DNA from: Blasia pusilla
Taxonomy: Eukaryota
Reading direction: 5' to 3'
DNA length: 64,000 nt
Assembly: GCA_050084515.1 (NCBI GenBank)
Contig: CM114271.1
Location: 9,300,001-9,364,000, forward strand
Part shown: positions 334-34,010 of the stretch, piece by piece
Layout: each line of letters opens with the position of its first letter
Position numbering within the stretch: position 1 is the stretch's first letter
Program-made: the position numbers and the translations under genes
Notes under the pieces: model-generated
Told to the model about the DNA's origin: nothing
The model's database searches: none
Seen by the model: the letters and a program-made list of their open reading frames with translations, nothing else

Positions 334-1239
334 ACGGGAAAAAGCAATAGCCATTGACGATAGCCCTGCCCGTCCAACCGAAAGTGTTGAGATGCGGGAA
401 ATGTCCCCCATGAAGTCCGGGGACACAATCAACATAGTGGAAATGCCAGAAGTTGAAATCAATGACGACGAGGTCATGAGGACCGCCAGCGTGGAGATGG
501 TGGACATGGCCGAAGAAGCCAGAGAGCGGTCATTCTCGACTCCAAGCCTGACGGAGGACATCGACCTCTATCAGATCGACGAGTTCCTAGTCGATTTTCC
601 AGCTTCTATCTCATACAAGTTGGCTGGTCAAGAAACCGACCCAATTTTTGAGCGGGTAAGAGAGGATATGGGTTTTTTGAATTATGTGAATTGCAATTCA
701 TTGGGAATTCAGTGTAGCTTATTCATCTTGTCCCGGTTGTGACATGTGGTAAAGCAGATGGCACTCATGGAGGGCCACAATGCCCTGAGGATTCCACTCT
801 GCCGATTGCGGACAATGGAATACGTCTGCGAAATTCAGTCCGACGAGGACATCGCGAAGCTTAAACATTCGGCGGCGACAACATCCTACGTCGACAGCTT
901 TCCTCCCTTCTATGTTCAGCCTTACGACGAGCATGGAACCCAATCTCTGGTTATGGAGGAGGACTTGGAAAAGCTCGACACATTCTGGAGGATGAGAGAT
1001 CAGGATTTCAGAAGGCAAGTAGAGGGCACGGAATTCAGCTGGATGAGGAATCTGCATTTCTTCATCTGGGATGGAAATCACAGGTTCATGGCGTGGACCA
1101 AGTTTGCGGAGGAGCGGCCCAACTCCTTGGAGGCACATTTTTGCGTGAAGGCAGTGGTCCTTCACCCATTCCCTCATCACATGGCGAGGGTGGAGATGGC
1201 AATGCATGCCATGAACACGTGAGTATCTTTAACACTTAC

Positions 1240-1840
1240 GCAACTCGTCGGGACGGTTGTTGGGATGCTTTAACACTTACGCAACTCGTCGGACTCCAAC
1301 GAGTTGCTCGATTGATGAATGGGTTAGGTTTTTTTTGCCGAAAGAAACTCGTCGGACTCCGACGGGTTGCTCGACTCGACGCTTTTTCGGATGTTTTTTA
1401 AGAATGCAACTCGTCATACTCCGAAGAGTTGTTCGATTGATCACAGATTTAATTAGTTTTTGGCCCAAAGCAAACCGTCAGAGTCCGACGGGTTGCTCGA
1501 CTCGCCGCCTTGTCATGATGTTTTTTGAAGAATGCAACTCGTCGGAGTCCGACGAGTTGTTCGACTGACTGCAGGTTTATAATGTTTTTTGCCCAAAACA
1601 ACCCGTCGGAGTCCGACGGGTTGCTTGCCTCGAAATTGTTTTTGGCCAAAATCAACCCGTCAGAGTCCGACAGGTTGCTATGTTCACATTAGTATGTTCA
1701 GTTGCACAACCCGTCGGAGTCCGACGGGTTGAAACCAGGCATTAGCAAATCTGAATGCAATCCATCGGACTCCGATGGGTTGCATCATTTAGCTCGTTGC
1801 TAGAATCCGACCTTGAGCTGTGACGACCCGTCGGAGTCCA
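1240..1840. repeat. Array of CAACCCGTCGGA-N-TCCGACGGGTTG palindromes in the intron after the ParB exon
   Basis: About a dozen imperfect copies, e.g. caacccgtcggagtccgacgggttg near 1599-1623 and 1707-1731. Confidence 0.9.
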
Positions 1841-3249
1841 TCCCGGATGAAGCAAACCTTGAAAGTTCTGGAGATTTCGAGGTTTGGCTCGACGACATAT
1901 GGGACAAGCCAACCAAAAACCCAGGATTCAAGACCATGTTCAAGGTTTGCGTCCTCCCTCAGGCAGAGCTTGACGAAGAAGTAGAGGGGAACAAACGGGA
2001 TCAAGCGAAGAAGAAGCGAGATCTACAGGAGCAGACGGCCGATTCTGTTCGACTAAAAGCTGCCCAACGGATGGTCTTCAGGAACCTCGTCCAGTGTAAG
2101 AACGCAGGTACGTGGGGAAAATTACCGACAGCCTTGAAATTGTGGGCTTCGCCGCCGGATGGAGAGACATTCTCCATGTACGACATGGAGATGGGGCAGC
2201 ACATGTCCGATTGGGAGGTGGAGAATTGCCCCATTTGGCTCGACTTCAACGACCCTGAAGACATCACCAATAAGGATTTATGAGTGCTTCATGATGCAGT
2301 GGCCTCAGGACAAGACGACATCCCCAATTTCATCCAGCCTGAAGACTTCTTTGGAGGAGATGCAGAAGAGCAGGCCCACGAGACAGCTGAGTTGGCTTCC
2401 AAGGTCCGCACAGCCAAAGACAAATCCACATCGAGTCTCAAAGGCAAGGGGAGGGGAGGGAAAAATTCAAAGGCCGAGACTTCCAAAAGAGAGCCTGAAG
2501 ATGAGAGGCCAGAGGCAGAATCGTCCGGACGAGCGGGGAGAGAGGGTCAGACCAGGTCCTCGGCGAAAAAAAAAGCCACCAGAGTCTAGTCTCATAGAAA
2601 CCCCGACAAGCCGTCCCCAGACTAGAGAGAAGCGGAAGCAAGAGGTGCCCGGGTTGTCCCAAGGAGAATACAGTCCATCATCCTTGGGAAGACACAGACA
2701 AACAACGACCCGGACAAGCGTCCTCCTTCAGTTCACTCCTTTTCTGGATGAGCTGAAGAGCTTCAGTTCTCAAGCGTCGACACCAGCCATCGAAAAATTG
2801 ACAACGCTGGGACGGAAGCTCCAACAAAACGGGCACGTTGCCTGGACGGTGAATGGAGTGGTCGAAGAGGTTGTGGTGGATCTCTTGATCGCCGATCTGC
2901 CCTCGGGGTTGCAACTTTGGGGCGAGAATCCGTCGGATGAGGTACCTGAGTGGAATGTGCCGCTCTCTTATGACCAGATTGCGCTTTTGTTCTCCTTTGC
3001 AGATGCCTATGTGAGTGACAGGGGCTGCTTCTTTGTGTTGATTGGAGGGAGCGAGGACGAGCTCTTCAACCTCCAGTGCGTCAAGAGGTTGCTAAAGTGG
3101 AGGACGGCGCAATCGTGGATCATAAAAAACGAGTACCCACTCCGATCTGCGACGAGTCAGATTCGGGTAAGGCTCAATTCCTGTACTATAATTTCAATTA
3201 TTCTTTAATGATGTGTATAATGAGAGTCAATCTGGGTTTTTTTTGTCCG

Positions 3250-3640
3250 TGAGCAACCCGTCGGAAGGCGACGGGTTGCTGGCTTAGAGCAGCCCATGCT
3301 CGGTTGAGAGCAACCCGTCGCTTTCCGATGGGTTCCATCTTTCCCACATACACAGGGAAAACCGCGGTGTACCTGCAACCCGTCGGAACCCGACGGGTTG
3401 TAGTTGCTTTTGGTTTTTCCCAGTTGATTTTGGTTTTTGGATGCAACCCGTCTGATAGCGACGGGTTGCTCTCAAGCAAGCATGGGCTGCTCTAGGCCAG
3501 CAACCCGTCGCCTTCCGATGGGTTGCTCAATGAAAAAAACAACGGAGCCCGACGGGTTGTTTTAGTCCCTGACCAACCCATCAGAAGGCGACGGGTTGGT
3601 CCGGGAAAAAACAACCTGTCGGACTCTGACAGGTTGATCC
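3250..3640. repeat. Palindrome array (CAACCCGTCG-N5-CGACGGGTTG) in the intron splitting the MTase domain
   Basis: Repeated gcaacccgtcggaaggcgacgggttgc-type units between donor 3167 and acceptor 3715. Confidence 0.9.
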
Positions 3641-5574
3641 AAAGTCAGTTATTGAAAATTTTCTCAAGCCGACTTCTTTAGTTTCTGACATTGTTTCCAA
3701 CGTGTTGATTTACAGATGGACCACTCCTACGTCTACTGCTTCGTTCGGCCCGAGCACAATTTCCAGGTGTTCAAGATCCAGGATCTTGTGGATCCATGCT
3801 CAGATGGGTACAGCTTAGATAGTTTGTACAATTCCCCCCTGGGAATTTACGTGCAAGACAGTACCCCACTTCTGGGAGGAAGGGAAAAATCGCCAGCCCT
3901 AATGCAAACGCTCATCGAGCTCTGCTCAAGGCCAGGTGACTTGGTGTTCGACTTAGTGGGACTTTCAGGGGCAAGTATCAAAGGCGTCTGGCATAGTGGG
4001 AGGAATATTCCTTGCCTCGAGGGAAGGCAGGAACTGTTTGACCTTTGCAAGGAGGCAAAGGCAGAATACGAAAGGCTCGTTGGGGCGTACAACTCTCCAC
4101 CGAAGCCGAGAGCTCCGGTTCCAGACCCACCATTGGTAGTGACTCCATCGTCACTTCCAACGATTCCAAAAATCGGGAGGGCAAGGCCGAAAGTAATTTT
4201 GCAAGAGGTCTCGGACGATGACGAGTCAGTTCAAAGAACTCAACGACCTAGCTTGACTGCAGCGTTTGGAGTAGGGAGTTTCTTGATGATGAGGCAAAAG
4301 ATTTCATAGAATAGATCAAATGTACAGTTCCGAGTTTTTTTTGGATGATATAAATGAGAAGATTTTTTCGAACGATGGTGGTGCTTGTAAAAGTTTGCTA
4401 AATATTTTTTGTCTTTTCGAATGTGATCGTCTATGTTCTCCGCGGACTTCTATTTTGCAACCCGTCGGATTTCTCCTGCATGCAACTTTTCACTTTATGA
4501 CCACTACAACCCGTCGGATTTCTCCCGCTTGCAACTTTTCACTTTTTGACCACTGCACCCTTTTTACCACTTCCAGGCAACCTGTCGGATTCCGGCAGGT
4601 TTCCTGATCGGACTCTTTCCCTGCTGGTCCAACTTAAGAGGCAGTCTGGCGGGCTTCTTCCCTTGGCACCTTCCCCTCAACTCGTAAAGGCAGGCGTAGG
4701 CTTCTTTTCTTCTCTCAGACGTGTTGGATTCCTACTACCTGTGCGATTGCCATAATGGTATTACCGAGGACGAAGCAGATATTGATACTGGATGGGTGTC
4801 ACATTACAGAGCGTACAAGGTATACTGCCAAGGAAGGCGGTGGGACTCGAATCAGGTTACATGGGACCGTTATGGTGTACCTAGGGGGGGCCAAGGCTCT
4901 CGAATTCGCCAACATTTTCGATCCCCGTCTACAATCGGCCAGAGGAGCCACTTATATCCCATGACATTCCTTTGGTACTGTCACCGAGGAGAGTTAGGAG
5001 TAAATTTGTAGATGACGAGGGTGAAGAAATCATAGACTAGGTCAAATGTACATTTCCGAGGTTCCTTTGGAGGTAATAAAGGACGAGATTTTTTCAACCC
5101 ATAATGGTGTTTGTAAAAGTTTGCTGGAATTATTTTTTGGACTTGTGGATTGTGTTCTTTTAGCTACTCAGAATTACAATTCTACAACCCGTATGATTCC
5201 GACGGGTTCCAACTTTTTGCTTTTTGCCCACTGCAACTTTTTAACCATTTCCAAGCAAGCTGTCGGATTTCGAGAGGTTGACTTCTTGAGTGATCGGACT
5301 CTATCCCGGTGAGACCAACTTCTGACGCATTGTGGCGGGCTTCTTAACTTTTGGCTTGTTCCCCTACATTCGTCAAACCAGTTGTAGGCTTCTTTTCTTG
5401 TCTAAGATGTGCAGGATTCCTACTACCTGTCGGATTGCCATTTCGGATTCTCAACCTGTTAGATCGTCGTGGGTGCAGGGTGGAAGAAAATCACTTCTAA
5501 AAATCTTTCCTTTCTTATGGTGATCTTTCTTACGGGTTGGGAGGGGTGCAGCTTCTCGGTTTCTCAGCCTTAGG

Positions 5575-6810
5575 ATCTGATGTGTTCACATTTCACAAAG
5601 TTGGTCTTGAGCAGACACCATTCATAACCAACAGAAAGTTGGTTATGGGGCAATTTAGGGGAGGCCATGATGGAGGCAACAATCCTTGCAAAAAGAGAGG
5701 TTGGCATCCGGGTGATCCTCCAACAAAAATACCAAGGGCACTGCTTTTTTTTGACCGAGACAGGGAATGTTAAGAAACTTAGGCTCACATGGAGAGTGAT
5801 GGAAAAATGTTTATAGTGGTCTTATGATGTCTCCTTTTTTCTCGCCCCCAAGAAAGAGGAGGTTTTTTTAGGGCCAAATGTGGACCACTAAATACTCTCT
5901 TCTAAAGATTTCCTGAATTTGAAAGCAAACAAAAATTTCAAATATGTGAAAAAGTTTTGAAGAGAGGAGGCGGATTTGGCCCTTTTTTTTTAAGAGAGGC
6001 TCTCCTCTCTTCCTCTCCTCTCTTACTCTCTCCTGCCAGAATACCAGCCCCCTTTTTTTTTGCCCCCAGGAAAAAGGAGGTTTTTTTAGGGCCAAATGTG
6101 GACCACTACCTACTCTCTTCTAAAGATTTCATGAATTTGAAAGCAAACAAAAATTTCAAATATGTCAAAAAGTTTTGAAGAGAGGAGGCGGATTTGGCCC
6201 TTTTTTTTGAAGAGAGACTCTCCTCTCTTCCTCTCTTCCTCTCTTACTCTCTCCTGCCAGAATACCGGCCCCCCTCTTTACTCCAGACAGCTAACAATCT
6301 TTTGGTTCAATTATCGTCTCATGTGTTCACATTTCACAAAGTTGGTCTTGAGCAGACACCACTCATAACCAACAAAAAGTTGGTTATGGGGCAATTCAGG
6401 GGAGGCCATGATGGAGGCAACAATCCCTGCAAAAAGAGAGGTTGGCATCGTACCGATGCGCATCCGGGTGGTCCTCCAACAAAAATACCCATGGGCACTG
6501 CTTATTGTAGACCGAGACAGGTAATGTTAAGAAACTTAGGCTCACATGGAGAGTGATGGAAAAATGTTTGTAGTGGTCTTATGATGTCTACTTTTTTTTC
6601 GCCCCTAGGAAAAAGGAGGTTTCTTTACGGCCAAATGTTGACCACTACCTACTCTCTTCTAAAGATTTCGTGAATTTGAAAGCAAACAAAAATTCCAAAT
6701 ATATCAACAAGTTTTGAAGAGAGGAGGCAGATTTGGCCCTTTTTTTTTAAGAGAGACTCTCCTCTCTTCCTCTCCTCTCTTACTCTCTCCTGCCAGAATA
6801 CCAACCCCCC
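5575..6810 (+). repeat. Three tandem, partly truncated copies of the element's terminal segment
   Basis: The unit ending GAATACC(A/G)(A/G)CCCCC ends at ~6052, ~6273 and ~6810. Shared blocks (CAAATGTGGACCACTA, TTTTGAAGAGAGGAGG) recur in each. Confidence 0.85.
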
Positions 6811-7089: not shown

Positions 7090-7793
7090 TGCTAGGAGGT
7101 GTTATTCAAGCTTGGCGTAGACGAAGAATATAGGAGATGCTTGGAGAAGGAGGAAGTTCCTCGAGTGATTCTTGTTATGCATTCGGAGGATGCAGGAGGG
7201 CATTATGCAGTGAAGAATACTGTCAAGAAGATCTTGACTACACGCTATTGGTGGCCTACAATGTATTGGGATGTCAGGTTCTTCATCCAAAAGTGTGATG
7301 CGTATCAAAGAGCAGGAAGGCCAACAATGACTTCTTGCTGGCCTTTGGTATCTATTCTCCCTTTGGCCTTGATTGAGAAGTGGGATATTGATTTTGTGCG
7401 AACTATCTCACCTGCCACTAGGCAGACCCGCCGGAAGTATATCTTAATTGCTACAGATTAATGTACCAAGATGGTGGAAGTAGTAGCTACTCCCAAAGAT
7501 AATAGTGAGGCAATGGCCAAGTTCTTATATGAGATGATAATTACAAGATATGGCTGTCCATTGGAACTCGTAAGCGACCAAGGGACCCATTTCCTCAACA
7601 AGACGGTCGAAGTATTGACGGATCACTTCCTGATCAAGCATAGGAAGACTACACCTTACAATCCCAAAGCTAATGGGTTAATAGAGAAGTCCAATGGGTT
7701 TATTTGGAGGATTTTGAATCGCCTAATCGTCATATATTCATATGACTGGGATACCAAGATTCTTGCTGCACTCAGGGCCTACCTGTCGCGACC
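7090..7793 (+). pseudogene. Ty3/Gypsy integrase, 5' part (family 2)
   Basis: H..AGGHY...RYWWPTMY...CDAYQR zinc-binding region, KWDIDFV, LVSDQGTHF, TTPYNPKANGLIE core. Interrupted by an LTR after GCCTACC. Confidence 0.9.
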
Positions 7794-8784
7794 CTCATGA
7801 CCAAACAAGTGCCAAGCGGAACATCGGAACATTAGCGGGCTCACGCTAAGATGGTTTGCGCGTTGGAGTTGTCTCAAAGAGAAGACAAAGAGGCGACGCG
7901 CGGCGAGGAGTCGCGTTCAGGTGTTATGGTCGCGACTGAGAAACCTGGACCAAACGCGGAATGAGACTTGAAAGAAGTCGAGTCTAGGAAGTGGGTTGCC
8001 AAAGGAAAGATCCGGATGTGGAACGCCACTAGCGTTTGAGAGTTTTCGACTGTATTTATGGCCATAACTTTTAGCGCCAAAATGCGTTTGGAGCAAATAA
8101 GGATGCGTTGGAAAGCTTATGGATAGCCGGTCCAAACGCACCAAAGATCGCTGCAAACGCATAAGAAGCGGCCGAGATAAGACCCGAAAACGACTGTAAG
8201 TGGAGTCGGGTTGAGGGCCACAATGAAGGGCCCGACCCTCTTTTCCTAAAAGGGAAGGGTTATTGGAGAACCCCAGAAGTACTAGTAAGGGGGAAGGTCT
8301 CCGAGAGTGCTTGGAACCCAAACCCCACTTTGGGCGCCGTGGGGCGGCTCAAGGGCATGGAACAGAACGCGAGTTTGGGGGTTGGGTTGGAAAACCTGCA
8401 CCAAGTCCAGTGAGGCAATTTTAGACATCCCTCTTGGATTCCACCCCGCTACTCAATTACTTGGGTCTCGGTTCGGAACTCACCCGAGGACCGTTGAACA
8501 GTTGGGATCGCTAGGCGCGCAAGTGCCGTTTCAAATCCTTGGACTAACTAGAAAGTCTGTTCCAAGTCTTGAAGGACTTGCCATGTGTTGGAAGCTAGGA
8601 ACTAAGGAAGGTTGAGCTTGATGAGACGCCGAGTTGAGGACTCGGTGGGTTGGAATGCCGGTTGGCCAAACCCGACTAACGAGAGTGCGTGTTTGGGTGC
8701 AGATCGGCGATGAGTTCGTGACCTATTGAACGCACGCTTCCGCAACACTAAAGATTGACGTTCAAGGAGAGTAGGGGCGCGACA
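7794..8784. mobile_element. LTR (~990 bp), left breakpoint of the inverted duplication
   Basis: Termini TGTCGCG...CGCGACA; homologous to 62206-63207 and 24555-25245. Left flank CTACC and right flank AATAT do not match, so this copy is recombinant. Confidence 0.85.
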
Positions 8785-11700
8785 AATATCAACATCTATA
8801 TCCCATCTTCGCAAAACACATACAAATTTGCTTTTGACGGAATCTTGATGAGACCCTTCTCTCGGAATAATATATCTATTCGTTGATACCATACCCTTGG
8901 GGCTTGCTTCAACCCATACAATGCTCAATGTAGTAAACACACCTTCTCTTCTGATCCGGGTGTCTCAAAACCTGGTGGTTGAGATACATACACCTCCTCC
9001 TTGAGACTCCCATTCAGAAAGGCAGACTTCACATCGTATTGGTATACAGGCCAACGTCTTGTTCTTGCAACCGCTAGAACAATTCGAATGGCTGTCATCC
9101 TTGCAATAGAAGAAAAAGTCTCATATTAGTCAAAACCTTTTATTTGTGAGCATCCTTGTGCAACCAACCTCGCTTTGAATTTATCCAATGTACCGTCCGA
9201 CTTGTACTTGGTCTTGTACATCCACTTGGTGCCTATTATCTTCCTGTTCTTTGGCTTCTCAACCAAAGTCCAAGTTTCATTTCTCTGAATAGCATCCATC
9301 TCCATCTGCATGGCCTCTCTCCATTGAGGATGAGCAAGGGCCTCATCCAAGCATGATGGCTCTTCCATATTCAAGATCTCTATCATCAAGGTCGTGTTGA
9401 CGAGATGTACGGAAGCTCTATTATGCTCCTCTAGTATCCTGGATCTCCTTGGATATGTAACAACTTCATCAATTTTTGGTGGATCCTTACCATCCAAGAG
9501 CTGCTTTATCCACTTAGGGTATGACGACTGTAGTGGAAGAGCATGGTGCTCTTTGTAACCATCACCAAATTCTTCTTCTTGATGATCTAGTGTAAACATT
9601 GGTGGTGTGCTCTGTTGGGTTATCTCTTCGTTTGATGATAATGTGGACGGACCACTCATATCCACCACTTGACGAGGCTGTTCCCTGAACACCACATCAC
9701 GACTCACAAGCATCTTCTTTGCCTCAAGAGACCATAGGCAATAAGCTTTAGACTCATCATTGTATTCCATAAAGATACACTTCATGCTCTTGGACTCCAG
9801 CTTGGTCCTGCATGCTTCAGTAATATGTACAAATATCTGAAATGTTGGACTGATGGTACCTTACATGAGTATGATTGATGAGGATTCATGCCTTGCACTG
9901 ACTTGGTAGCACTTCTATTTAGAATGTAAACGGCAGTGTTAACAGCTTTAGCCCAAAATCCTTCTGTCAAACCTTTTGCTTTCATCATACATCTTGCCAT
10001 CTCCACCACTGTACGGTTTCGATGCTCAACAACTCTATTTTGTTGTGGTGTATGTACCATGGTTAATTGTTGCTTGATTCCATGCTCCCCCAAAAATTTG
10101 TTGAATTCTGTTGATAAGAATCATCCTCCTCGATCGGTGCAAAGTTTTTGTACCTTCTTTCCTGTCTCATTCTCAACCAACTTATGCCATACTTTAAATT
10201 TTCCAAAAGCGCTTGCCTTATCACGAAGGAAATACACCCACATCTTCCTACTATAATCGTCGACAACGAAAGAGAAGTAGAAAGAACCACCTAATGCCAT
10301 TGTTCTCATTTTACCACAGAGGTCAACATGAATAAGCTCTAGAGGAGCCTTTGCTCTATTTTTGGACTCTTGTGGAAATGATTGTCAGTATTGCTTGCCC
10401 ATCATACAAGCTTCACATGTATCCGACACTCAAAAAATTGTTGGTAAATCAACAACCATGCCAGATTTTTGCATCTAACTTAGTAAGGGAAATCTTAGGT
10501 GACCATATCTTTCATGTCACAACTTACTGCTACTAAGATCTATACCTACACTTGTCGTGAAAGCATACAACTCGTAGATATTTCCATGTCGTATACCTTC
10601 ACCCACTACTTTTCCATTGGCATCCTCAATGACTGCTCCAGTTTTCTTGAAACGAAATTCTAGGTCACGATCACATAATACTACTATTGAAATCAAATTC
10701 TGCTTCAACTCTAGTATGTACAGTACATCAGTTAACTTCTTTTTATCTCCTTTTTGTGAGACTAAAGAAATTGTGCCTTTCCCTTCTACAGGGCACTTTG
10801 CATTATTCCCAACAGTAGCAACGATGGGCTCCTATAGAGGCTGTAAGGAGCTATACCAATCCTTATGATTGGTCATATGTCTAGATGCTCCACTATCGAG
10901 CCCCCATGCATCTTCACTCTTTGACTTAGTGGAATGTTCTGCCTGCGTGAAAAACTCTCCGATTGCTATCCAAGCATCTACTTCATATTCTCCTAGTTCT
11001 ACAGAATTTCTAGACTCCTTCTTAGGTCTTAAACAACTGTTCTTCTCATCCAGACTCCTCTTTCTACAATCTTTGATAAGATGACCTAGCTTGCCACAAT
11101 AAAAGAATTTGAAGGCTTTCATTGGGAATTTCTTCTTGACATTTGAACTGTAATCCTGATTTCTACCTCTTTGTATGTTGGCAATAAATGCTGCATCACT
11201 TCCCTCTCTTGCTTTGAAGCGCATTTCCTCTTCTACCAACATTGCACTAAATTTTTCAAAAGTAAGCGGCGTGGGTCTTACTTGAGTATTCAATGAAGTG
11301 ACCAAACTGTCATATCTTGGAGGCAAAATCCTTATGCACCAACCTGCCAAATCTTCGCTAGAGTTTGAAATTCCTACGGATGCCATCTGATCTTGAAGAT
11401 TCTTGATCCTTGTCAAAAATTACTCTGCGCTTTCTCCTTCTGAAAATTTCTCGGACGTAAGCTGATTCTCTAGATTCTCCGAGTCTCATTCCTCCTTTCA
11501 TACTGACTCTTCATAATGTTCCACGTCTCAGCAACAGTGGTTGTATGTTGAATGAGAGTCATGAGAAAATCAATTATATTCGTGACAATCGCATATAGAG
11601 CATCAGCGTTTTTGTGTTTCCATGCCAACAATACAACAAGATCGATATCACCAGATGAAGATGAACATGCCTGCCACAAAGTAGCTTATGGATTCGAATT

Positions 11701-12331
11701 GACCCATGTGGCCCTCTCCCAGATCTCAAATGATTCGAGGAAAGTCATCATTTTGAACTTCCACAATGTATAGTTAGACCCATCTAACTTCCCTTCACCC
11801 AGCGGAGGAGGGTGAGCACGAACTAACAAAGAAGTAGCCCTCTCAAGATTTTGTGCAAACACACCAGATCGCCAGATATAAAATATTGGAAAACCTACTA
11901 CTCTGATACCATGTGAGAAAATAGAAAGTGACAAAATCACTGAAATCTTTACAAAACTTAGAGATACAAAGTGGCCTAGTCTGTCCGTGCGCTCACAAAA
12001 GAGCTTCAATGGAACGTGAACATGGAGATAACTCAACATACGAGAATGTGCTACCGTTGCGGCTCCGAACTATTTCACTACTCGGGAAACTAGGGTTTTT
12101 TATCTATTTTTCTTTGTTTCTATTAATAGAAAAATTTGCATCAGGATGCTCCGCACCCTGATGCAATATAGGGTTAGATAATCTTAGTAACGCTACTCCT
12201 AAAACCACCTACGTCATATTACTATGACTCCTTCAACGTCTAAATCGAAACCATCAATCTAGGCTTCTCCTCATACAAGGGGTTCGATCAGATTAATGGT
12301 GCTCAGAGAAGTGGATGTTGAGAATCCAACA
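8785..12331 (-). mobile_element. Ty1/Copia retrotransposon, 5' LTR plus gag-PR-INT-partial RT (decayed duplicate)
   Basis: LTR 12331-11912 (TGTTGG...CA), PBS TGGTATCAGAGT 11911-11900, zinc knuckle FYCGKLGHLIKDC, protease LDSGASRHM, integrase TPQQNRVVE, RT KFKARLVAQG; many stops. Confidence 0.93.
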
Positions 12332-13723
12332 CTTGGCCCATGACTCGCCATTTATGAATGAAAGGAAATTGTGAGTTGGCCCTAATCCTGGCAATGGCAT
12401 CCATCTCCGCGGTCTTTCCATCAAGTATTTATATTTGACGCAATAAGTTTTTGAAGCTTTCAGGATCAGCCAAAGTTGTTTCTCCTCAACTGCCATGATC
12501 TCCCCTTGGCCAGGGATACCCAGAAGTTGTTCACAAATTTGTGATTCCATTTTCAATTTGATAATACCGAGAAGTTGTTCATAAATTTGTGATTCCATTG
12601 TCAATTTGATCACTCCAGGCTTTGATCCTAGAGAATTTTTGTACACATCGGCCACTTTCATTTCCATATCCTCCTTGATGTGTCTCTGGATTGCATCTGT
12701 GACAAGATGAGTGTGAGACCCAACATGAATTTCCAGGCTTGTGTACTCAGACATAGAATTATAGTCGTGCACTATGAAAAAAGTATAAGCGGAAAATGCT
12801 CTAACATAAAAAAGGGAGGCTCAACAATGAGGACATCGATGGCCACTTGGCGGTATGGTCGTACCGATGGCGCAAGGAGTTTCTGCATTCTTATTGGGGA
12901 ATTGTGATGTATTCACTACTTTGTTCCGCCCTAGGAAGGGGCATCCTAAACTTCTACACTCTAAGGCTCCAACGCAGTGGCGACAAGATATAATCCAAGG
13001 ACCACCTAGGATTGAAGCGCTTGTCCGTTGCAGTTTGCATCATCGCCGAGAGTCCAATTTTCGGTCCATACCCTTCAAGCGCCCTCCATCTTTTTTCTGA
13101 GCATGACCGATAAGTGGAGGCAACTAAAATATACAGTTTCCATCATACGTTGCTGGTAGCTCATCCACGAGAATGTGCTTTAAGAGTTTCAAGGGAAGAG
13201 ATGAAAGCAAAGAATTTCCCGAAACTCCATGCAGGAACGAGTAAGCAGATGTTGAGTCTAACATGTTTCTAATAGATCTTGTGAGATCGACGACATCCGA
13301 AATGTACCCACCTTCAACTGCATTATTATGAGCTTGTGAGTTTGGAGTCGATGCTGGATCGGCGGAAGAAACCGTGCCAAACATGGAGCATGGAGCACTT
13401 GAAGATTTCGAACCATCTTTATGGGTGGAAGTGGGCCTCATAGGTAGGTCATAAACTCTGAATTGTCCATTGGAGTAGGGTAAGAGGTTTCACACTTTGG
13501 AGCCTCCAATCTCCGGTTGGACTATTTCACCAATGATGTCGTCCGTTCCATCAACCTTGACATAATGGGATACAAAGATGGTTCCAACCAGGAGCAGAAA
13601 TCGGAATGAAAGGAAATGTTCTTCAACAATTACATGAGTGCCACTAGGTTGGGCTCGAATTATCTCCGATTGAGGAAGGGCCGCTATATGACTGCCACAT
13701 GTGAGCTTCACATAATTTTCCAT
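12332..13723 (-). pseudogene. Cys/His-rich (GCM/WRKY-like zinc-finger) transposase-like gene, truncated by the Copia LTR
   Basis: Inverted duplicate of 57262-58657; begins MENYVKLTCGSH; homologous to ORF 33467..34024. Confidence 0.5.
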
Positions 13724-13979: not shown

Positions 13980-14830
13980 AAAATGCAACCCGTCTGAGTC
14001 AGACGGGTTGAAAGGTAGAATGCAAGGGAACTACAATCCGTTGGAGTCCGACGGGTTGGAAACCACCAGGTAGGATATCAATAGTACGACTCGTAGCAGT
14101 TGAATTTACTCGAGTTTGGCTGGGACAGTACGACTCGTCGGATTTCGTCCGTTCATTTTGCAATCAGTTGGATTCAAACGGGTTGCAATTGCAAAGGTCC
14201 AAATGTCTTGAGGTCGGATTCCATGGCTTCGTGGGAGCGGCAAATGGAATGGCGAATGGATTGGAAAAATGACCGGACCGTATTATGAGATACTCTTGCG
14301 CAAGCTGTCGGAGTGTGACAGGTTGTCCTCAGACCATCGTGCCTGACTCGTGCAACCCGTCAAACTCAAACGGGTTGCGCGGGCACCGTTTTGCCTAACT
14401 GGTGCAACTCATCGGACTTCGACAGGTTTCAAGAGTTGGGTAGGATTGGCCCCCCAGCAACCCGTACGACTCCGACGGATTGCATCAGTTAGGCAGGCTG
14501 GGTCCTGTGCAACCCGTCGAACTCCAACGGGTTGCACGAGTTAGGCAAGCAAGGTCCCGTGAAACCCGTTGGAGTCCAACGGGTTGCACAAACTGGGCAC
14601 GATGGACCTCGTACAACTCGTCACAGCTCGATGGGTTGCACAAACTGGGCAGGATGGTCCCTGTGCAACCCGTCGGAGTCCGACGGGTTGACTCCGATGG
14701 GTTGCAAATAGAGTCTGGGGCGTATTGCCCAAGCATTGTTGTTGTAACCCATCAAAACTCGACGGGTTGCAACCAGCCCACGCGGAACATGCATTGTAAG
14801 GGTCCACCATCGTACAACCGGTCAACGGTC
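13980..14830. repeat. CAACCCGTCG/CGACGGGTTG palindrome array upstream of the GCM-like gene
   Basis: Many imperfect copies, e.g. tgcaacccgtcggagtccgacgggttg near 14664-14690. Confidence 0.85.
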
Positions 14831-23739: not shown

Positions 23740-24556
23740 CTAGTAAGGTGCCGTCGATGATGCACAGAAAACAATTTGTTTGAAGAGTTACTGTTTAGTG
23801 AAGAGATTTTCATGTTCACTCATGATCGTGCCTCCTTCTATTTCCAACACTCTCGTGTTTCTGTAATATAATTTCAAATTTTATTTCATTCAAGTATTGT
23901 TTTATATACTACATTTCGTGTGTAGGCACCGTCCTTATTTGAATGTTCATCGCTTCCAAGGGTAATGTGGATGGAACTTCTCTTCCCTACTCTAGATAAT
24001 GCTTCATACAATTGATCGTGAAAAAATACATGAGTAGGCAAGTAAATGCCAACATTTTGCAAAGTTTGACCTTGAGACTTATTAATAGTCATAGCAAAAG
24101 TTGGGCGAATAGGGAATTGAAACCTACGTAAATCAAATGGCAGACCAGAATCCGATGCAATCAATGGAATCCGTGGAATAAAAACTCGATCTCCAATATT
24201 CTTCCCGATAATAATTTCGCCATCTATACAATGTTGCATAACTCCAGGAATCACCAATCTCATCCCGTGTGCTTGTCCTTGTGACCCATTCATGTTTAAA
24301 CGATGCGGAGGCCAGAAGGCAAGCATGTATTCAAAAATTCCATTGGATAGATATGACTCATCCCCTCATTTGGAATAGAGTCGACGCTAAGGTAAATATG
24401 CTCTTGTACAATGTGTAATGAATTCGTGAGAAACAATAATGTATTAGTAAAGATAGTCAGTAAAACAATCCTAAACCCTAAAGCCTAAGAGAAAAAAATC
24501 CATGTAGAAGATGTATGTAGGTTAAGAGAAAAAAATCCATGTAGAAGATGTATGTA
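23740..24556 (-). mobile_element. 3' fragment of an autonomous Helitron (PIF1 helicase C-terminus and CTAG end)
   Basis: ORF 23886..24326 has RRFQFPIRPTFAMTINKSQGQTL...LYEALSRV...TRNVVYK; inverted copy of ~49670-50459. Confidence 0.9.
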
Positions 24557-26253: not shown

Positions 26254-28340
26254 GGGGGCTGGTATTCTGGCAAGAGAGAGTAAGAGAGGAGAGGAAGAGA
26301 GGAAGAGAGGAAGAGAGGAGAGTCTCTCTTAAAAAAAAAGGGCCAAATCCGCCTCCTCTCTTCAAAACTTTTTGACAAATTTGAAATTTTCGTTTGCTTT
26401 CAAATTCAGGAAATCTTTACAAGAGAGTAGGTTGTGGTCCACATTTGGCCCTAAAAAAACCTCCTTTTTCCTGGGGGCGAAAGAAAAGTAGACATCATAA
26501 GACCACTACAATTTTTTTTCCATCACTCTCCATGTGAGCCTAAGTTTCTTAACATTACCTGTCTCGGTCTACAAAAAGCAGTGCCCATGGGTATTTTTGT
26601 TGGAGGACCACCCGGATGCCAACCTCTGTTTTTGCAGGGATTGTTGCCTGCATCATGGCCTCCCCTGAATTGCCCCATAACCAACTTTCTGTTGGTTATG
26701 AGTGGTTCTTTGAACTCACTCGTCATCGTCCGAGAGCTCTTGCAAAATTGCTTTCGGCCTTACCCTCCCAATTTTCGGAATCGTTGGAAGTGACAATGGA
26801 GTCACTACCAATGGTGGGTCTGGAACCAGAGCTCTCGGCTTCGGTGGAGAGTTGTACGCCCCAACGAGCCTTTCGTTTTCTGCCTTTGCCTCCTTGCAAA
26901 GGTCAAACAGTTCTTGCCTTCCCTCGAGGCAGAGAATGTTCCTGCCACTCTGCCAGGCGCCTTTGATACTTGCCCTTGAAAGTCCCACTAAGTCGAACAC
27001 CAAGTCACCCGGCCTTGAGCAGAGCTCGATGAGCGTTTGCATGGGGGCTGGCAATTTTTCCCTTCCTCCCGAAGGAAGTCTTGTCTTGCATGTAAATTCC
27101 CGAGGGGGAATTGTACAAACTATCTAAGTTGTACCCATCTGAGCATGGATCCACAGGATCCTGGATCTTGAACACATGGAAATTGTGCTCGGGCCGAACG
27201 AAGCAGTACACGTAGGAGTGGTCCATCTGTAAAGAAGCACGTTGGAAAGAATGTCAGCATAATGTGCAACACATCACCAAAGAAGTCAACTTGACCCTAG
27301 AGAACTTTTTCAATTACTAACTTTGGATCAACCCGTCGGGCTCTCCGTTGTTTTTGTCCATGAGGTTGCTGGCCTAGAGCAGCCCATGCTCCACTGAGAG
27401 CAACCCGTCGCTATCCGACGGGTTGCAACTTTCCGGAAACAGAGGGAAAAACCAAAAGCAACTCCAACCCGTCGGGTTCCGATGGGTTGCAGGTACACCA
27501 CGGTTTTCCCTGTGTTTCTGGGAAAGATGCAACCCGTCGGATAGCGACGGGTTGCTCTGAGCAGAGCATGGGCTGCTCTTAGCCAGCAACATGTCGCCTT
27601 CCAACGGGTTGCTCATGGAAAAAAACAACGGAGATATACTATCTGAAATTAACACTCATTGAGCCTTACCCGAATTTGAAAATATATTTGATATTATACT
27701 ATAGGAATTGAGCCTTACCCGAATCTGACTCGTCGCGGATCGGAGTGGGTACTCGTTTATTATGATCCACGATTGCGCCGTTCTCCACTTTAGCGACCTC
27801 TTGACGCACTGGAGGTTGAAGAGCTCGTCCTCGCTCCCTCCAATCAACACCAAGAAGCAGCCCCTGTCACTCATATAGCCGTCTACAAAGGAGAACAATA
27901 GCGCGATTTGGTCATAAGAGAGCGGCACATTCCACTCAGGTACCCCATCCGACGGATTCTCGCCCCACAGTCGCAAACCCGAGGGCAGATCAGCGATCAA
28001 GAGATCCACCGCAACCTCTTCAACCACTCCATTCACCGTCCTGGCAGCGTGCCCGTTTCGTTGGAGCTTCCGTCGCAGGGTTGTCAATTTATCAATGGCT
28101 GGTGTCGACGCTTGAGAACTGAAGCTTTTCAGCTCATCCAATAAAGGAGTGAACTGAAGGAGGACGCTTGTCTGGGTCGTTGTTTGTCTGTGTCTTCCCA
28201 AGGATGATGGACTGTATTCTCCTTGTGACAACCATGGCACCTCTCGCTTCCGCTTCTCCCGAGTCTGCGGACGGCTTGTCGGGGTCTCTATGACCTCAGA
28301 CTCTAGTGGGGTTTTCTTCGCCGAGGACCTGGTCCGACCC
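26254..28340 (-). mobile_element. ParB-MTase element copy B (MTase exons, intron, terminus; internally deleted)
   Basis: Terminus GGGGGCTGGTATTCTGG at 26254; ORFs 27656..28372 (DLLIADLPSG), 27005..27226 and 26716..27054 (CSRPGDLVFDLVGLS). Confidence 0.8.
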
Positions 28341-28399
28341 TCAATGGTGGGTGATATTCCCCTCTGATACAATCCTGCACATCCAAACTCAACCCGTCA

Positions 28400-28924: not shown

Positions 28925-30640
28925 TGTTGGCTTCAAAGGTCCGCACAGCCAAAGACAAATCCACAGCGGGTCTCAAAGGCAAGGAGGGGAGGGAAGAATT
29001 TCAAGGCCGAGTCTTCCCAAAGATAGGCTGAAGATTCAAGGCCAGAGGCGGAATCGTCCGGGCGAGCGGGGAGAGAGGGTCGGACCAGGTCCTCGGAAAA
29101 AAAAAACCACACCAGAGTCCGAGTTCATAGAGACCCTGACAAGCCGTCCGCAGACTCGGGAGAAGCGGAAGCGAGAGGTGCCAGTGTTGTCCCAAGGACA
29201 ATATAGTCCATCATCCTTGGGAAGACATAGAGAAACAACGACCCGGACAAGCGTCCTCCTTTAGTTCACGAATTTACTGGATGAGCTGAAAAGCTTCAGT
29301 TCTCAAGCGTCGATACCCGCCATTGATAAATTGACAACACTAGGACGGAAGCTCCAACGAAACAGGCACGCTCCTTGGACGGTGAATGGAGTGGTCGAAG
29401 AGGTTGCGGTGGATCTCTTGATCGCTGATATGCCCTCGGGGTTGCGACTGTGGGACAAGAATCCATCAGATGGGGTTCCTGACTGGAATGTTCCCCTCTC
29501 TTATGACCAAATCGCGCTATTGTTCTCCTTTGCAGACGCCTATCTGAGTGACAGGGGCTGCTTCTTAGTGTTGACTGGAGGGAGCAAGGACGAGCTTTTC
29601 AACCTCCACTGCGTCAAGAGGTCGCTAAAGTGGAGGACGGTGCAATCGTGGATCATAAAAAATGAGTACCCACTCCTATCCGCGATGAATCTGATTCGGG
29701 TAAGGCTCAATTCCTGTAGTATAATCTCAAATATATATTCAAATTCGGGTAAGGCTCAATGCGTGTGAATTTCAGATAGCATATCTCCGTTGTTTTTGTC
29801 CGTGAGCAACCCGTCGGAAGGCGACGGGTTGCTGGCTTAGAGCAGCCCATGCTTGGCTAAGAGCAACCCGTTGGTTTCCGACGGGTTGCATCTTTCCCAG
29901 AAACACAGGGAAAACCGTGGTGTACCTGCAACCCGTCGGAACCCGACGGGTTGCGCCTTTGGTTTTTCCTCTGTATTTTGAGCCGCAACCCGTCGGAAAG
30001 CGACGGGTTGCTCTCACCAAGCATGGGTCGCTTAACCAGCAAGAACCCGCCGCCTTCCGACGGGTTGGTCATGGACAAAACAACCCGTCGAACTCCGACA
30101 GGTTGCTCCAAAGTTAGTAATTGAAAAAAGTTCTCTAGGGTCAAGCCGAGTTCTTTGGTGACGTGTTGCACATTATGCCAAGTTTCGACATTCTTTCCAA
30201 CGTGTTTTCTTACAGATGGACCACTCCTACGCCATCGCTTCGTTCGGCCCGAGCACAATTTCCAGGTGTTCAAGATCCAGGATCTTGTGGATCCATGCTC
30301 AGATGGGTACATCTTAGATAGTTTGTACAATTCCCCCTCGAGAATTTACATGCAAGACGATACTCCACTTCAAGAAGGAAGGGAAAAGTCGCCATCCTCG
30401 ATGCAAACGCTCACCGAGCTCTGCTCAAGGCCGGGTGACTTGGTGTTCGACTTAGTGGGACTTTCAGGGGCGAGTATCAAAGGTGTCTGGCAGAGTGGCA
30501 GGAACATTCTCTGCCTCGAGGGAAGGCAGGAATTGTTTGACCTTTGCAAGGAGGCAAAGGCAGAATACGAAAAGCTCGTTGGGGGGTTCATCTCTCCACT
30601 GAAGCCGAGAGCTCCTGTTCCAGACCCACCATTGGTAGTG
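28925..30640 (+). pseudogene. ParB-MTase element copy C (MTase exons only)
   Basis: DLLIADMPSG exon ends at 29699 (GTAAGG). After a palindrome intron and TACAG acceptor, the exon from 30216 has EKSPSSMQTLTELCSRPGDLVFDLVGLSGAS. Confidence 0.8.
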
Positions 30641-30649
30641 AAACCAAAA

Positions 30650-32219
30650 AAAATTTCGAGTCAAGCAACCCGTCGGACTCCGACGGGTTGCTTTGGGCAA
30701 AAAACATACTAAACCTGCGGTCAGTTGAACAACTCGTCGGAGTCCAACGAGTTTCTTTCTTCAAAAAACATCTTGAAAAGGCGGCGAGTCGAGCAACCCG
30801 TCGGACTCCGACGGGTTGCTTTGGGCCAAAAACTTATTAAATTTGTTGTCAGTCGAACAACTCGTCAGAGTCCGACGAGTTGCATTCTTCAAAAAACATC
30901 CTGAAAAAGCGTCGAGTCGAGCAACTTGTCGGAGTCCGACGAGTTGCGTTTGGCCAAAAGCATCCCAACAACAGTGCCGACCCAAACAACTTGTCGGAGT
31001 CCGACGGTTTGCAGCAAGAAGATACTCACGTGTTCATGGCATGCATTGCCATCTCCACCGTCGGGAGATGAGGGAATAGATGAAGGACCACTTCCTTCAC
31101 GCAAAAATGTGCCTCCAAGGAGTTGGGCCGCTCCTCTGCAAACTTGGTCCATGCCATGAACCTGTGATTTCCATCCCAGATGAAGAAATACAGATTCCTC
31201 ATCCAGCTGAATTCTGTGCCCTCTACTTGCCTTTTGAAATCCTGGTCTCTCATCCTCCAGAATGTGTCGAGCTTTTCCAAGTCCTCCTCCGTAACCAGGG
31301 CTTGGGTTCCATGCTCGTTGTAAGGCTGAACATAGAAGGGAGGAAAGCTATCGACATAGGATGTTGTCGCCGCTGATTGTTTAAGCTTCGCGATGTCCTC
31401 GTCGGACTGAATTTCGCGGACGTATTCCATTGTCCGCAATCGTCAGAGTGGAATCCTCTGGGCGTTGTGGCCCTCCATGAGTGCCATCTGCTTTACCACC
31501 TGTCAAGACCGGGACAAGATCAATAAGCTACACTGAATTCCCAATGAATTGCAATTCACATAATTCAAAAAACCCAGATCCTCTCTTACTCGCTCAAAAA
31601 TTGGGTCGGTTTCTTGACCAGTCAACTTGTCTGAGACAGAAGCGGGCAAGTCCACTGGGAACTCGTCGATCCGATAGAGGTTGATGTCTTCCGCCGGGCT
31701 TGGAGACGAGAATGACCGCTCTCCGGCTTCTTCGGTAATGTCCACCATCTCCACGTTGGCGGTCCTCATGACCTCATCGTCCGTGATTTGAACTTTTGGC
31801 GTTTCCGCTATGTTGATTGTGTCCCCGGACTTCATCGGGGACATTTCCCGCATCTCAACACTTTCGGTTGGATGGGCAAGGCTATTGTCAATGGCTATTG
31901 CTTTTTCCCTCCTCGCTTTAGCCAATTCTGCTCTCCTCACCGACGCGTCCAGACGCTTCTTTTCTCTCTTCTTGTCGGCGATCCTTTTCTTCAAGGCCTG
32001 TGACGTCTCAGCCTCTGCGTTCTGTCTATCGAGCGCCACTTGAACATGTCTTGCAAGAAGCTCCTTGTTGTGCATCTCCGCTTCCCTTTCCCGCTCCTTG
32101 ATTTCCTGGTGCCTAATTTCATTTGCCGAACGAGGCGCTGGAGATGCTGACGCAGGAGTCCTAATGGACTTTGGAGTGAAGTTCCCAGACTTGTTTGCTT
32201 GTGATTTTTTCCTCGTCAT
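30650..32219 (-). pseudogene. ParB-MTase gene copy D: 5' exons (charged coiled-coil N-terminus and ParB-like exon)
   Basis: Likely ATG at 32219 (MTRKKSQANKSG). A 90-bp intron 31589-31500 (GTAAGA...TTGACAG) removes the apparent stop. Exon 31499-31030 has WDGNHRFMAW, then donor GTGAGT and a palindrome intron. Confidence 0.75.
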
Positions 32220-32589
32220 TTTTTTCCGGAAATGCCTCCACCTATGTCCATGATGAATCGCTTGATCAGTCGCCTTGCTGATGTCGAGATGAGTCACCTT
32301 GATGGGTAGCTCGAACCGTCTCGCAATCATTTAGTCGAACCGTCTCGCTCTCGTTCGGTCGAATCGTCTCGCTCTCGTTCCCTCGTATCGACTTGCGATG
32401 ACTCGCCGTGTGAAACGCCCCTTGGTATCTGATCAGCTGTGGCGCGGGAGAGAGAGGAATGGAGATCGCAAAATGAGAAACCGGAAATGAGCAATTTCTG
32501 CCCTATTTATACTTTTCTAGCCGTAGGGCTGACCGTGGGGTCCCGTCGTCCTTTCGACGGCGACGTGCCAGAGGTTACGGAAGTCCGGA

Positions 32590-33215
32590 CGTGAACAAAT
32601 GGCAACCCGTTGGAGTCCGACAGGTTGCGCGCCTCCGCCGTCCTGGGTACGTCAACACGTGCGCGAGCAATCCGTCGGAGACCGACAGGTTGAGCGCCTC
32701 CGCCGTCTTTGGACAAGAACGCGAGGTACCCGTGCAACCCGTCGGAGACCGACATGTTGCGCGCCTCCGCCGTCTTTGGACAAGAACGGGACGTACCCGC
32801 GCAATCCGTCGGAGACCGTTGGGTTGCACGCTTCCCTCGTCAAGGGTTAACAACGCAGGCTTCCCGCGCAACTCGTCGGAGTCCGACAGGTTGTACGCTT
32901 CCTTCATGTAAGCACCACAAGGCGAGGCCCTTGCGCAACCAGTCGAAGGGCGACGGGTTGCACGCCTTGCCATCTTTGGGCAAATAGGTGCGGCACCCGC
33001 GGAACTCATCGGGAACAGACAGTTTACATGCCTCCGGCATCTTTGGGCAAGAAGGAGCGGTATCCGAGGAACTCGTTGGAGAGCGACGGGTTGCCAGCTT
33101 CGACCATGTTTGCGTTTGAAGGTAAGGTAGAAGCGTGCAACCCGTGCGAAGCCGACGGGTTGCAGGCTTCGCTTAGCTTGGGTTAATTGTTGAGTTTCAA
33201 GGACTCCGACAGGTT
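32590..33215. repeat. Palindrome array in the intergenic region between the divergent ParB-MTase and GCM-like genes
   Basis: About ten imperfect CAACCCGTCG-N5-CGACGGGTTG units embedded in ~58-bp repeats (GCGCCTCCGCCGTCTTTGG). Confidence 0.8.
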
Positions 33216-33466: not shown

Positions 33467-34010
33467 ATGGATAATTATGTGAAGCTCACTTGTGGCAGTC
33501 ATCTGGTGGCCCTTCCTCAATCAAAAATCATTCGACCGCAAGCTCGTGAGTCTTTCATAGCAGTGGATGAAAAATTTCTCTCTGTTCGGTTTCTTCTCCA
33601 AATTGGAACCATCTTTGTATCCAAAGATGTTAGGGTGGACGGTACGGAAGACATAATAGGTGAGACGGTCCAGCCAATGACTGCAGACCGTAAAGTATGG
33701 AATCTCCTACCTCTAGCAAATGGTCAATACAGAGTTTACGGCCTACTCCCGAATTTGTCTGTTTCCCAAGTAGACGATGGAGAATTTCCTAGTTCTCCGA
33801 GCTCTATGTTTGCAACTCCTAGCCCAATACATCCGGCTTTGACTCCAACTTCACACGCTCGTATCAATGTTGTTCTTCGTGAAGAGATTCCGGATGTTAT
33901 CAACCTCAGTGGATCTGTCGGACACCAACCGGGCCCTCTGTCCGCCTACTCGTTCCTCTTGCGAGTATCAGGCAATAGTTTGCTTTCGTCTCTGGCCTTG
34001 AAAATGTTCA
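33467..34010 (+). pseudogene. 5' part of the GCM-like/transposase-like gene, divergent from the ParB-MTase gene
   Basis: MDNYVKLTCGSHLVALPQS...SAYSFLLRVSGNSLLSSL aligns by eye with the 57262-58657 product. Truncated at ~34010 by a junction into MTase exon sequence. Confidence 0.6.

Follow-up and report, generated by a model that had tools for sequence, protein, structure and literature searches.

A pseudogenised copy of a bryophyte-type gene family with a degenerate DNA methylase domain, probably a transposon accessory gene, in Blasia pusilla

What kind of gene lies at positions 334-4309 (+ strand) of a 64,000-nucleotide (nt) stretch of Blasia pusilla DNA (GenBank assembly GCA_050084515.1, contig CM114271.1, positions 9,300,001 to 9,364,000 of the forward strand), and does it still encode an enzyme? 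This stretch, the window, is the frame of all coordinates given below. An initial annotation had read the locus as a transposon-borne, intron-containing gene that joins a ParB-like domain to a prokaryote-type N4C/N6A DNA methyltransferase-like domain and possibly marks its own DNA. We propose, with a probability of about 0.65, that it is a pseudogenised copy (copy 1) of a dispersed intron-containing gene family of bryophyte type, which ends in a dead methylase domain and is probably a transposon accessory gene. The exons of copy 1 are named A, B, D and E (Table 1). Exon B encodes a conserved domain around the motif DGNHR, and exons D and E encode the two halves of the methylase-like domain.

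Comparison with the Pfam family N6_N4_Mtase (PF01555) gave matches for exon E (E 0.0069, 16.8 bits, profile positions 165-218 of 221), for the Ceratodon purpureus hypothetical protein P0001 (E 0.015, 15.7 bits), for the metagenome protein P0003 (E 1.8e-4, 22.0 bits) and for copy 3 of the window (11.9 bits), the same profile region (165-220 of 221) being matched by three independent members. In PHROGs, all three members found only families of DNA or other methyltransferases (exon E at 2.9e-4, the best at 4.9e-5), and in PADLOC the methylase-like members matched type II and type III methyltransferases only. A profile search of the PDB returned seven matches, all of them DNA methyltransferases with DpnA as the best (5.9e-4), and the alignment with CcrM spans motif IV to motif I. 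Among 50,697 phage records searched with exon E by tblastn, 267 were matched, the best at E 4e-4; in the top 25 of these and in 60 rows spaced evenly over them, the annotated features included a methylase or methyltransferase gene in every case. An exhaustive phmmer search of 1.84 billion representatives yielded three matches at E ≤1e-3, of which only P0001 and P0003 are credible. The third, P0002, was discarded as a false positive, being a repeat protein of low complexity with 20 matched stretches. A search for longer proteins homologous to exon E found none. The Ceratodon proteins were matched by exon D at E 2e-8 to 1e-7 (blastp, 30-32% identity over 91 residues) and by exon E at 5e-13 to 3e-12, and both halves of the domain are thus common to Ceratodon and the window.

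Alignment by hhalign of copy 1, spliced as it stands, together with four Ceratodon domains against seven phage methylases (four checked by Pfam, the other three taken by annotation only) resulted in a probability of 97.4% and an E value of 9.5e-12 over 205 colinear columns, and the C-terminal 67 columns reached 96.6% and 5.5e-10. The colinear alignments with the phage methylases and CcrM place motif IV before motifs X and I, which is the order of the beta class and agrees with the order first proposed. The C-terminal domain is, as far as sequence comparison can tell, a true remote homologue of the prokaryotic and phage beta-class (N6_N4, PF01555-type) DNA amino-methyltransferases. Pfam, PHROGs, PADLOC, PDB, phage tblastn and hhalign agree on the prokaryote-type methyltransferase likeness that the initial annotation had claimed.

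Base stacking requires the aromatic residue of motif IV, and the binding of S-adenosylmethionine (SAM) requires the glycines of motif I. At the position of motif IV, the window copies have DLPS or DMPS, the Ceratodon proteins DAPE, the metagenome loci L024 and L026 DILD and L033 NILR, and the canonical (D/N/S)PP(Y/F/W) is present in none of them. The replacement of DPPY by D(L/M)PS, reported earlier for the three copies retaining the motif, was seen in all three window copies that hold the motif IV exon. Motif I appears as DLVGLSGAS, DWSANTGAS, DLSASTSAS or DLFYATSEY, none of which contains F-x-G-x-G. The phage references show DPPY, DPPF or DIPY in the stand-alone enzymes and DPPY in six of six ParB-fused ones, with a G-S-G loop. 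Exons D and E have a ratio of nonsynonymous to synonymous substitution rates (dN/dS) of 0.31-0.40 between window copies; for exon B the value is 0.27, and for the linker exon A it is 0.72. Because the motifs are lost in every lineage seen and yet dN/dS is low, a pseudo-enzyme with a non-catalytic role is the simplest reading. The methylase-like domain is most likely such a pseudo-enzyme, kept by purifying selection and predicted to methylate no longer. The caveat of possible inactivity that accompanied the first description is strongly borne out, as motifs IV and I are both non-canonical in every lineage seen, and given this loss the suggested marking of its own DNA is unlikely.

Both an in-frame stop and a frameshift mark copy 1 itself as a pseudogene. 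The stop at 2281-2283 and the additional base in the A-run mean that its ParB-like and methylase-like exons cannot be joined in one open frame; copy 2 reads through in one frame at 27656-28396 (-), where copy 1 has the extra A. The 64-kb window contains four further fragments of the gene, five in all, in both orientations and with different break points, and all copies besides copy 1 are truncated, frameshifted or stop-bearing. Silent-site divergence between the window copies is 10-20%, and their introns are 80-86% identical. Ceratodon has at least four paralogues, located on different chromosomes by locus tag, and six of the ten DGNHR-domain metagenome copies that were read carry one to six stops.

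The N-terminal part is less easily placed. Relatives of exon B were found among metagenome and Logan proteins (P0007-9; E 1e-10 to 6e-7, 28-35% identity) and in 15 JGI metagenome loci of low G+C. The stretch FFIWDGNHRF-AW and about 20 further positions are invariant in all five aligned sequences, and the DGNHR domain is, judged by this conservation, a real conserved family without a Pfam model. A box II-type pattern, in which a hydrophobic strand is followed by G-x-x-R or D-G-x-H-R and then by a helix, is typical of the ParB/Srx fold. A pattern of this type is present in the DGNHR domain (FFIWDGNHRF-AW), and on these pattern grounds we lean towards a ParB/Srx fold. In Pfam, DUF1015 was matched at E 0.05 by exon B of the window and at 0.08 by L033, over overlapping profile positions and far under the cut-off. 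Language-model neighbours, which serve as leads only, include a cluster with ParB_N in 11% of its members (0.95, 0.91) and the phage family DUF6551 (0.92, 0.90). Both DUF6551 and DUF1015 are given among the partners of the ParB-CTPase fold in a survey preprint (10.1101/2025.10.10.680097).

Several results weigh against a ParB assignment. Pfam gave no ParB_N match for the DGNHR domain, PHROGs and NCBIfam gave no ParB-type family for P0007-9, and exon B found nothing in the PDB by sequence and no match to phages by tblastn. Alignment by hhalign with seven phage ParB_N domains (six of them from ParB_N-N6_N4 fusions, ParB_N being Pfam-confirmed in four of those six) resulted in P 0.29 and a probability of 0.2%, compared with P 0.73 for the reversed control. 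AlphaFold2 models of exon B (five-row alignment) and of the Ceratodon methylase-like domain (10-row alignment) had predicted local distance difference test (pLDDT) scores of 48.0 and, on average, 39.5, both too poor for a fold search. A PDB search with the DGNHR profile found eL24 and a hydrolase only; the NCBIfam matches of the DGNHR relatives, and the PADLOC matches of two of them (type I specificity subunit and DpdC, E 0.016-0.027), were judged to be chance. Of the ParB/Srx-type DGNHR core claimed at the outset, a real and conserved domain therefore stands, but the ParB/Srx assignment failed every significance test run and retains only weak leads. The Pfam and structure-prediction checks suggested with it gave the sub-threshold N6_N4_Mtase match, but no ParB match, and no model of usable pLDDT.

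Two further observations concern the DGNHR domain. The strongest language-model neighbours of P0009 are fungal DUF3723 clusters (13 of 30 matches, score 0.95) and a cnidarian cluster; DUF3723 is described as a conserved accessory gene of the Starship giant transposons. Pfam gave no DUF3723 match for P0007-9, and no link between DUF3723 and ParB was found in the literature searched. In a sublineage formed by L024, L026 and L030, DGNDK stands in place of DGNHR, with one stop per copy.

In copy 1 the DGNHR and methylase-like domains lie 1.5 kb apart on one strand, with the link broken. The 15 metagenome loci had been found by the DGNHR domain alone, and eight of them hold a methylase-like domain 2.0-2.6 kb downstream on the same strand; in the seven loci without a methylase-like match, the sequence available downstream amounts to about 2.5 kb at most. 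Several of the 15 are the same place in different samples, and the independent lineages number about three. Four loci also have a Ceratodon-type middle domain after the DGNHR domain, which in three of the four lies between both domains. Because order and strand are the same in eight of the 15 loci, the pairing and order of the two domains are, on this reading of the loci, real. In L023 and in the window, two lineages about 30% identical, the same codon after the conserved Asn has a GT directly behind its second base, as expected of a conserved phase-2 donor. Such a donor would explain why the open reading frame (ORF) callers end P0007-9 right after the DGNHR domain, and we infer that both domains belong to one transcript. 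The initial claim of a ParB-to-methylase fusion in one intron-containing gene holds as to the introns and the conserved pair on one strand elsewhere, but the frame is broken in copy 1 and the ParB identity is uncertain. The middle domain, which has no Pfam family, was observed in Ceratodon and the metagenome loci (L023 1695-2315; L033 2018-2239; P0001 residues 1-215) at E 1e-17 to 7e-7. This N-terminal domain of the Ceratodon proteins was not found in the window copies.

The introns and flanks of the gene family are filled with arrays of 25-nt palindromes, each with 11-nt arms, a 3-nt spacer and the core AACCCGTCGG, at periods of 64 and 128 nt. The core occurs 134 times in the window against 2.4 expected, and exact palindromes number 36 against 0-4 in five shuffles. 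An array also lies upstream of copy 4 (32604-33215). The metagenome locus L023 has an array of its own at the contig edge (positions 1-100), about 400 nt upstream of the DGNHR exon, with three palindromes and 10-nt arms GTTTGGGTCG/CGACCCAAAC; the other nine metagenome loci checked show no obvious palindrome array. Together with copy number and decay, the palindrome arrays point to carriage by a transposon, which we consider likely. Most likely, the family belongs to the accessory genes of a large DNA transposon. Arrays of the AACCCGTCGG type were also observed away from the family exons, at 13987-14768, 32604-33215 and 56231-56998, and two of these adjoin two inverted Copia-like copies.

Four other explanations have to be weighed, two of which concern the methylase-like domain. 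If its methyltransferase likeness were a chance similarity of a short motif, the weak single-sequence results would be expected, and these count against the homology proposed here: no PF01555 score reaches the 26.7 bits of the gathering cut-off, the hhalign result for the N-terminal half by itself falls short of significance (P 0.0018 against 0.095 for the reversed control, or 0.023 against 0.049 with a thinner reference), and exon D alone found nothing in Pfam or by phmmer in the PDB and no relative in the metagenome scan. Its PDB matches to sandercyanin and hexosaminidase (E 0.6 or worse) and two irrelevant phage records from tblastn (E 8) were rejected. Chance would hardly place three independent members on the same profile region, nor give methyltransferases only in four libraries, annotated phage matches on methylase genes (in the rows listed, of 267) and an hhalign E value of 9.5e-12, and for the C-terminal half it is effectively refuted. 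An active N4C/N6A DNA methyltransferase, marking its own transposon DNA with odd motifs that are still catalytic, is also very improbable. The clear N6_N4 type of the domain, its purifying selection and the first Asp of motif IV, kept in four of five variants, would suit an active enzyme, and self-modification has been proposed in print for similar algal proteins. Against these stand the absence of the motif IV aromatic residue from all five variants (S, S, E, D and R in its place), the lack of the second proline in DILD and NILR, the degenerate glycine loop of motif I in all four of its variants and the broken state of all window copies.

The two remaining alternatives concern the gene as a whole. 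The DGNHR and methylase-like exons could belong to two genes side by side in one cassette, like PAG2 and PAG3 of Plavaka, where ParB-like and PF01555 genes are described as separate. Several observations that weigh against a single gene fit such a cassette: no uninterrupted copy was seen and copy 1 has no continuous frame, the acceptor after exon B is uncertain, the Ceratodon gene models (758-810 amino acids) start with the middle domain and do not include a DGNHR domain, the P0007-9 ORFs all end right after that domain, and no RNA splice joint was found at any predicted intron in low-depth runs whose reads come mostly from other copies. An intron would give the same ORF ends, however, and two separate genes would not account for the shared strand, order and 2.0-2.6 kb spacing in eight of 15 loci or for the GT at an identical codon position in two distant lineages; the Ectocarpus example is described as a single protein of 1104 amino acids. 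We regard two genes as unlikely, if less so than any other alternative. A host multigene family, domesticated or never mobile, whose copies are segmental duplicates and pseudogenes in a rearranged repeat-rich region, seems somewhat less probable still. It agrees with the large inverted duplications in the window, with the annotation of the Ceratodon copies as ordinary genes, with purifying selection, and with a null result that counts against transposon carriage, namely that neither the window nor the metagenome loci, with up to 6 kb around them, yielded a transposase, a terminal inverted repeat (TIR) or a target site duplication (TSD). In this search the window ORFs were scanned with Pfam and those of at least 105 amino acids in 13-26.7 kb were examined by eye; the 15 metagenome loci contain no ORF of at least 140 amino acids besides parts of the gene. 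A host family is at odds with fragments in both orientations with different break points, with the 10-20% silent-site divergence and RNA reads mostly from other copies less than 95% alike, with the many stop-bearing relatives, and with palindrome arrays that occur also elsewhere in the window and are typical of the subterminal repeats of elements. A transposon accessory gene with both domains is the reading we retain. "Transposon-borne" and spread by a plant DNA transposon, as the initial annotation put it, is supported as to a multi-copy decaying family but unproven as to the element itself.

The structure of copy 1 and the positions of the other copies are given in Table 1. Exons, motifs and GT..AG sites are all present where they had first been placed. 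Likeness of exon A to the copy at 31590-31910 (-) begins at about 336. The exon B donor, GTGAGT at 1219, is of phase 2 and kept in two of two copies, and one in-phase AG (1816-1817) is a candidate for its acceptor. Exon D ends at 3166 with the donor GTAAGG, and the phase-0 intron that follows joins exon D to exon E exactly as described before. The reported conservation of splice sites between copies was found for the D/E intron in four of four copies and for intron 1 and the exon B donor in two of two. Among the motifs quoted for the methylase part, DLPS, SWIIK, HSYVYCF and the EKSPALMQTLIELCSRPGDLVFD...SG stretch are all present in copy 1, but GRNILCLE comes from the copy at 30239-30655, and copy 1 has GRNIPCLE. 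Exon E further contains the degenerate motif I DLVGLSGAS (3950-3976) and the stretch EKSPALMQ...GDLVFDLVGLSGAS. The linker at 1804-2589 does not resemble the middle domain that the Ceratodon and metagenome relatives have. Palindrome half-sites were found in the 3' flank at 4459-4588. An open frame at 1-334, covered by RNA reads and without a Pfam family, differs from the upstream ORF of copy 4 (32330-31911).

Table 1. Coordinates of copy 1 and of the other family fragments in the window.
Feature	Positions	Strand	Remarks
Exon A, acidic low-complexity linker	335-655	+	no Pfam family; dN/dS 0.72 vs copy 4
Intron 1, GT..AG, phase 0	656-757	+	sites kept in 2/2 copies
Exon B, conserved DGNHR domain, possibly ParB/Srx type	758-1218	+	W-DGNHR at 1067-1084
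Intron-like stretch (~600 nt) packed with 25-nt palindrome arrays	1219-1817	+	
Family-specific linker reading frame	1804-2589	+	in-frame TGA at 2281-2283
A-run, one base longer than in copy 2	~2568-2577	+	shifts frame between linker and exon D
Exon D, 3' part, N-terminal half of methylase-like domain	2690-3166	+	degenerate motif IV DLPS at 2894-2905
D/E intron, phase 0, GTAAGG..TTTACAG	3167-3715	+	contains palindrome arrays; sites kept in 4/4 copies
Exon E, C-terminal half of methylase-like domain, tail, stop	3716-4309	+	motif X, then degenerate motif I
3' flank	4310-5580	+	89% identity with copy at 35120-36356; internal diverged duplication
Copy 2, part of exon D, intron, exon E	26671-28318	-	exon E frameshifted
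Copy 3, exon D, intron, exon E	28962-30655	+	one stop and motif DMPS in exon D
Copy 4, basic/coiled N-terminal ORF opening with Met, then exons A and B	31029-32330	-	one stop in exon B
Copy 5, end of exon D, intron, exon E	34003-35126	+	frameshifts

Transcription was assessed with three RNA runs bearing the same species label and one contig run, reads being kept at a likeness of at least 85%. Per run, 316-355 reads fell on 5.4 kb, mostly less than 95% alike. RNA from related copies covers the exons at low depth, mostly in the sense orientation expected of a standard stranded library. In the bins 3241-3600 of the D/E intron, depth was 0 in two of the three runs and did not exceed 0.18 in the other; these empty bins may reflect intron divergence, which is near the likeness threshold, as much as splicing. 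The confirmation of junctions by RNA-seq that had been envisaged was not obtained, as the RNA runs gave no joints at the predicted introns. Within exon B, 37-51 reads of opposite orientation pile up on 44 nt (796-839) in all three runs. They share four differences and have unrelated sequence on both sides, as if an abundant but unrelated transcript matched here over a short length.

The surroundings are repeat-rich, plant-like DNA with a Copia-type reverse transcriptase (RVT_2), a Gypsy-type integrase and PIF1 helicase fragments. An inverted duplication pairs 7784-8400 with 63207-62590 and 8249-12820 (-) with 57261-63073 (+), at 95% identity at the ends, and includes Copia-type elements with Pfam-confirmed RVT_2 and rve. 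The region 36000-48000 shows a strongly negative GC skew of -0.17 to -0.28 over 12 kb, with repeated units at 36680-36979, 45958-46257 and 47666-47965 and the Gypsy-type integrase at 38016-38597 (-). A PIF1-like helicase fragment (Pfam E 6e-33), accompanied by near-identical C-terminal ORFs in two places, occurs within the set 49007-49564 (+), 23886-24365 (-) and 49710-50312 (+) and suggests Helitron-type elements.

Gene products of similar composition are in print for algae, and the novelty implied by the initial annotation was overrated. ParB-like plus PF01555 methylase accessory proteins of transposons have been described for brown, green and red algae, among them a 1104-amino-acid ParB-like plus N4C/N6A methylase protein of the Ectocarpus transposon Sola1-1_Ec32 (Genome Biol 2025, PMC12477816). 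As described there, Sola1-1_Ec32 is a defined 21.5 kb element with a transposase, the domains of the protein are recognised by standard tools, and such proteins are proposed to "epigenetically modify their own transposon". Compared by description only, the plant family likewise consists of repeat-borne eukaryotic genes in which a ParB-like N-terminal part precedes a methylase domain of prokaryote type. Unlike Sola1-1_Ec32 as published, it shows no transposase or termini, its N-terminal domain fails the ParB profile tests and its methylase motifs are degenerate. In the red-algal Plavaka elements (Bostrychia preprint, 10.1101/2025.02.11.637652), PAG2 is described as a PF01555 DNA methylase with SET and PAG3 as a weak ParB-like domain (HHpred E 0.29) with a 2-oxoglutarate (2OG) oxygenase, and tandem inverted-repeat arrays adjoin PAG3. 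Again by description only, the PF01555-type and weakly ParB-like domains and the inverted-repeat arrays beside the gene resemble the domains and palindromes found here. Plavaka as described has two genes with SET and 2OG oxygenase partners, whereas the window has what we read as one collinear gene, in which neither partner was detected by Pfam. The literature searches made here gave no report of this gene class in land plants. Within a class of transposon accessory genes that is already known, the family represents a bryophyte-type variant, set apart by motif loss throughout the family under selection and by an N-terminal domain outside curated models.

Fusions of ParB_N to N6_N4 methylases are given as common in phages (survey preprint 10.1101/2025.10.10.680097). 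The six phage or prophage fusions examined here resemble the plant gene in having the ParB-type domain N-terminal and the beta-class methylase C-terminal; unlike it, they are about 390-480 amino acids long, intronless and have DPPY in all six, and the plant DGNHR domain has no significant alignment to their ParB_N (P 0.29). The plant methylase-like domain aligns with the six ParB-fused phage methylases at 53% and E 1.4e-4, more weakly than with the stand-alone ones (97.4%, E 9.5e-12). This sample of six therefore does not support a wholesale origin from a phage fusion of ParB and methylase.

A transposon methyltransferase domain judged inactive is known from the DIRS1 retrotransposon, where catalytic and substrate-binding substitutions were the grounds and binding was presumed (Iyer et al. 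2016, PMC4738411). The domain discussed here is similar in this respect. Unlike it, the DIRS1 domain belongs, as described, to a PCIF1-related clade (group 2), forms part of a retrotransposon polyprotein and is not joined to a ParB-like domain. Other amino-methyltransferase domains of prokaryote type encoded by eukaryotes are those of bdelloid N4CMT (PMC8885841) and, within the bryophytes, of Marchantia DN4MT1a/b (preprint 10.1101/2021.02.12.428880). These are described as active host genes with demonstrated N4-methylcytosine (4mC), with neither a ParB-like part nor a decaying multi-copy family, in contrast to the plant family, which has no catalytic motif.

We propose that the intact protein would consist of three parts, an N-terminal DGNHR domain that may be of the ParB/Srx type, a middle part that varies and a methylase-derived C-terminal domain. 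The latter has lost the catalytic motif and the SAM glycine loop in every lineage seen and yet stayed under purifying selection, and it may act as a DNA-recognition or scaffolding module. Possible targets would be the 25-nt palindrome arrays in the introns and flanks of the gene, to which the protein may bind. A bolder and rather improbable extension is that DGNHR represents a eukaryotic ParB/Srx branch, comprising bryophyte, cnidarian and Starship DUF3723 members, and that the plant protein fuses it to a dead methyltransferase as a DNA reader, loading on its own palindromes as ParB does on parS. If this were true, large eukaryotic transposons would possess a ParB/parS-like self-recognition for anti-silencing, tethering or copy-number control; the fungal Starship DUF3723 neighbours of the DGNHR family provide a testable lead.

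For annotation, the family calls for caution, as neither the Pfam gathering thresholds nor the gene models seen recognise these genes. For the biology of such elements, the proposed reading would extend the algal class of ParB-like plus PF01555 transposon accessory genes to land plants, and it suggests that the methylase part can persist over long evolutionary times as a selected pseudo-enzyme. The published idea of self-modification would be affected as well: in this lineage binding, and not modification, would be the conserved activity.

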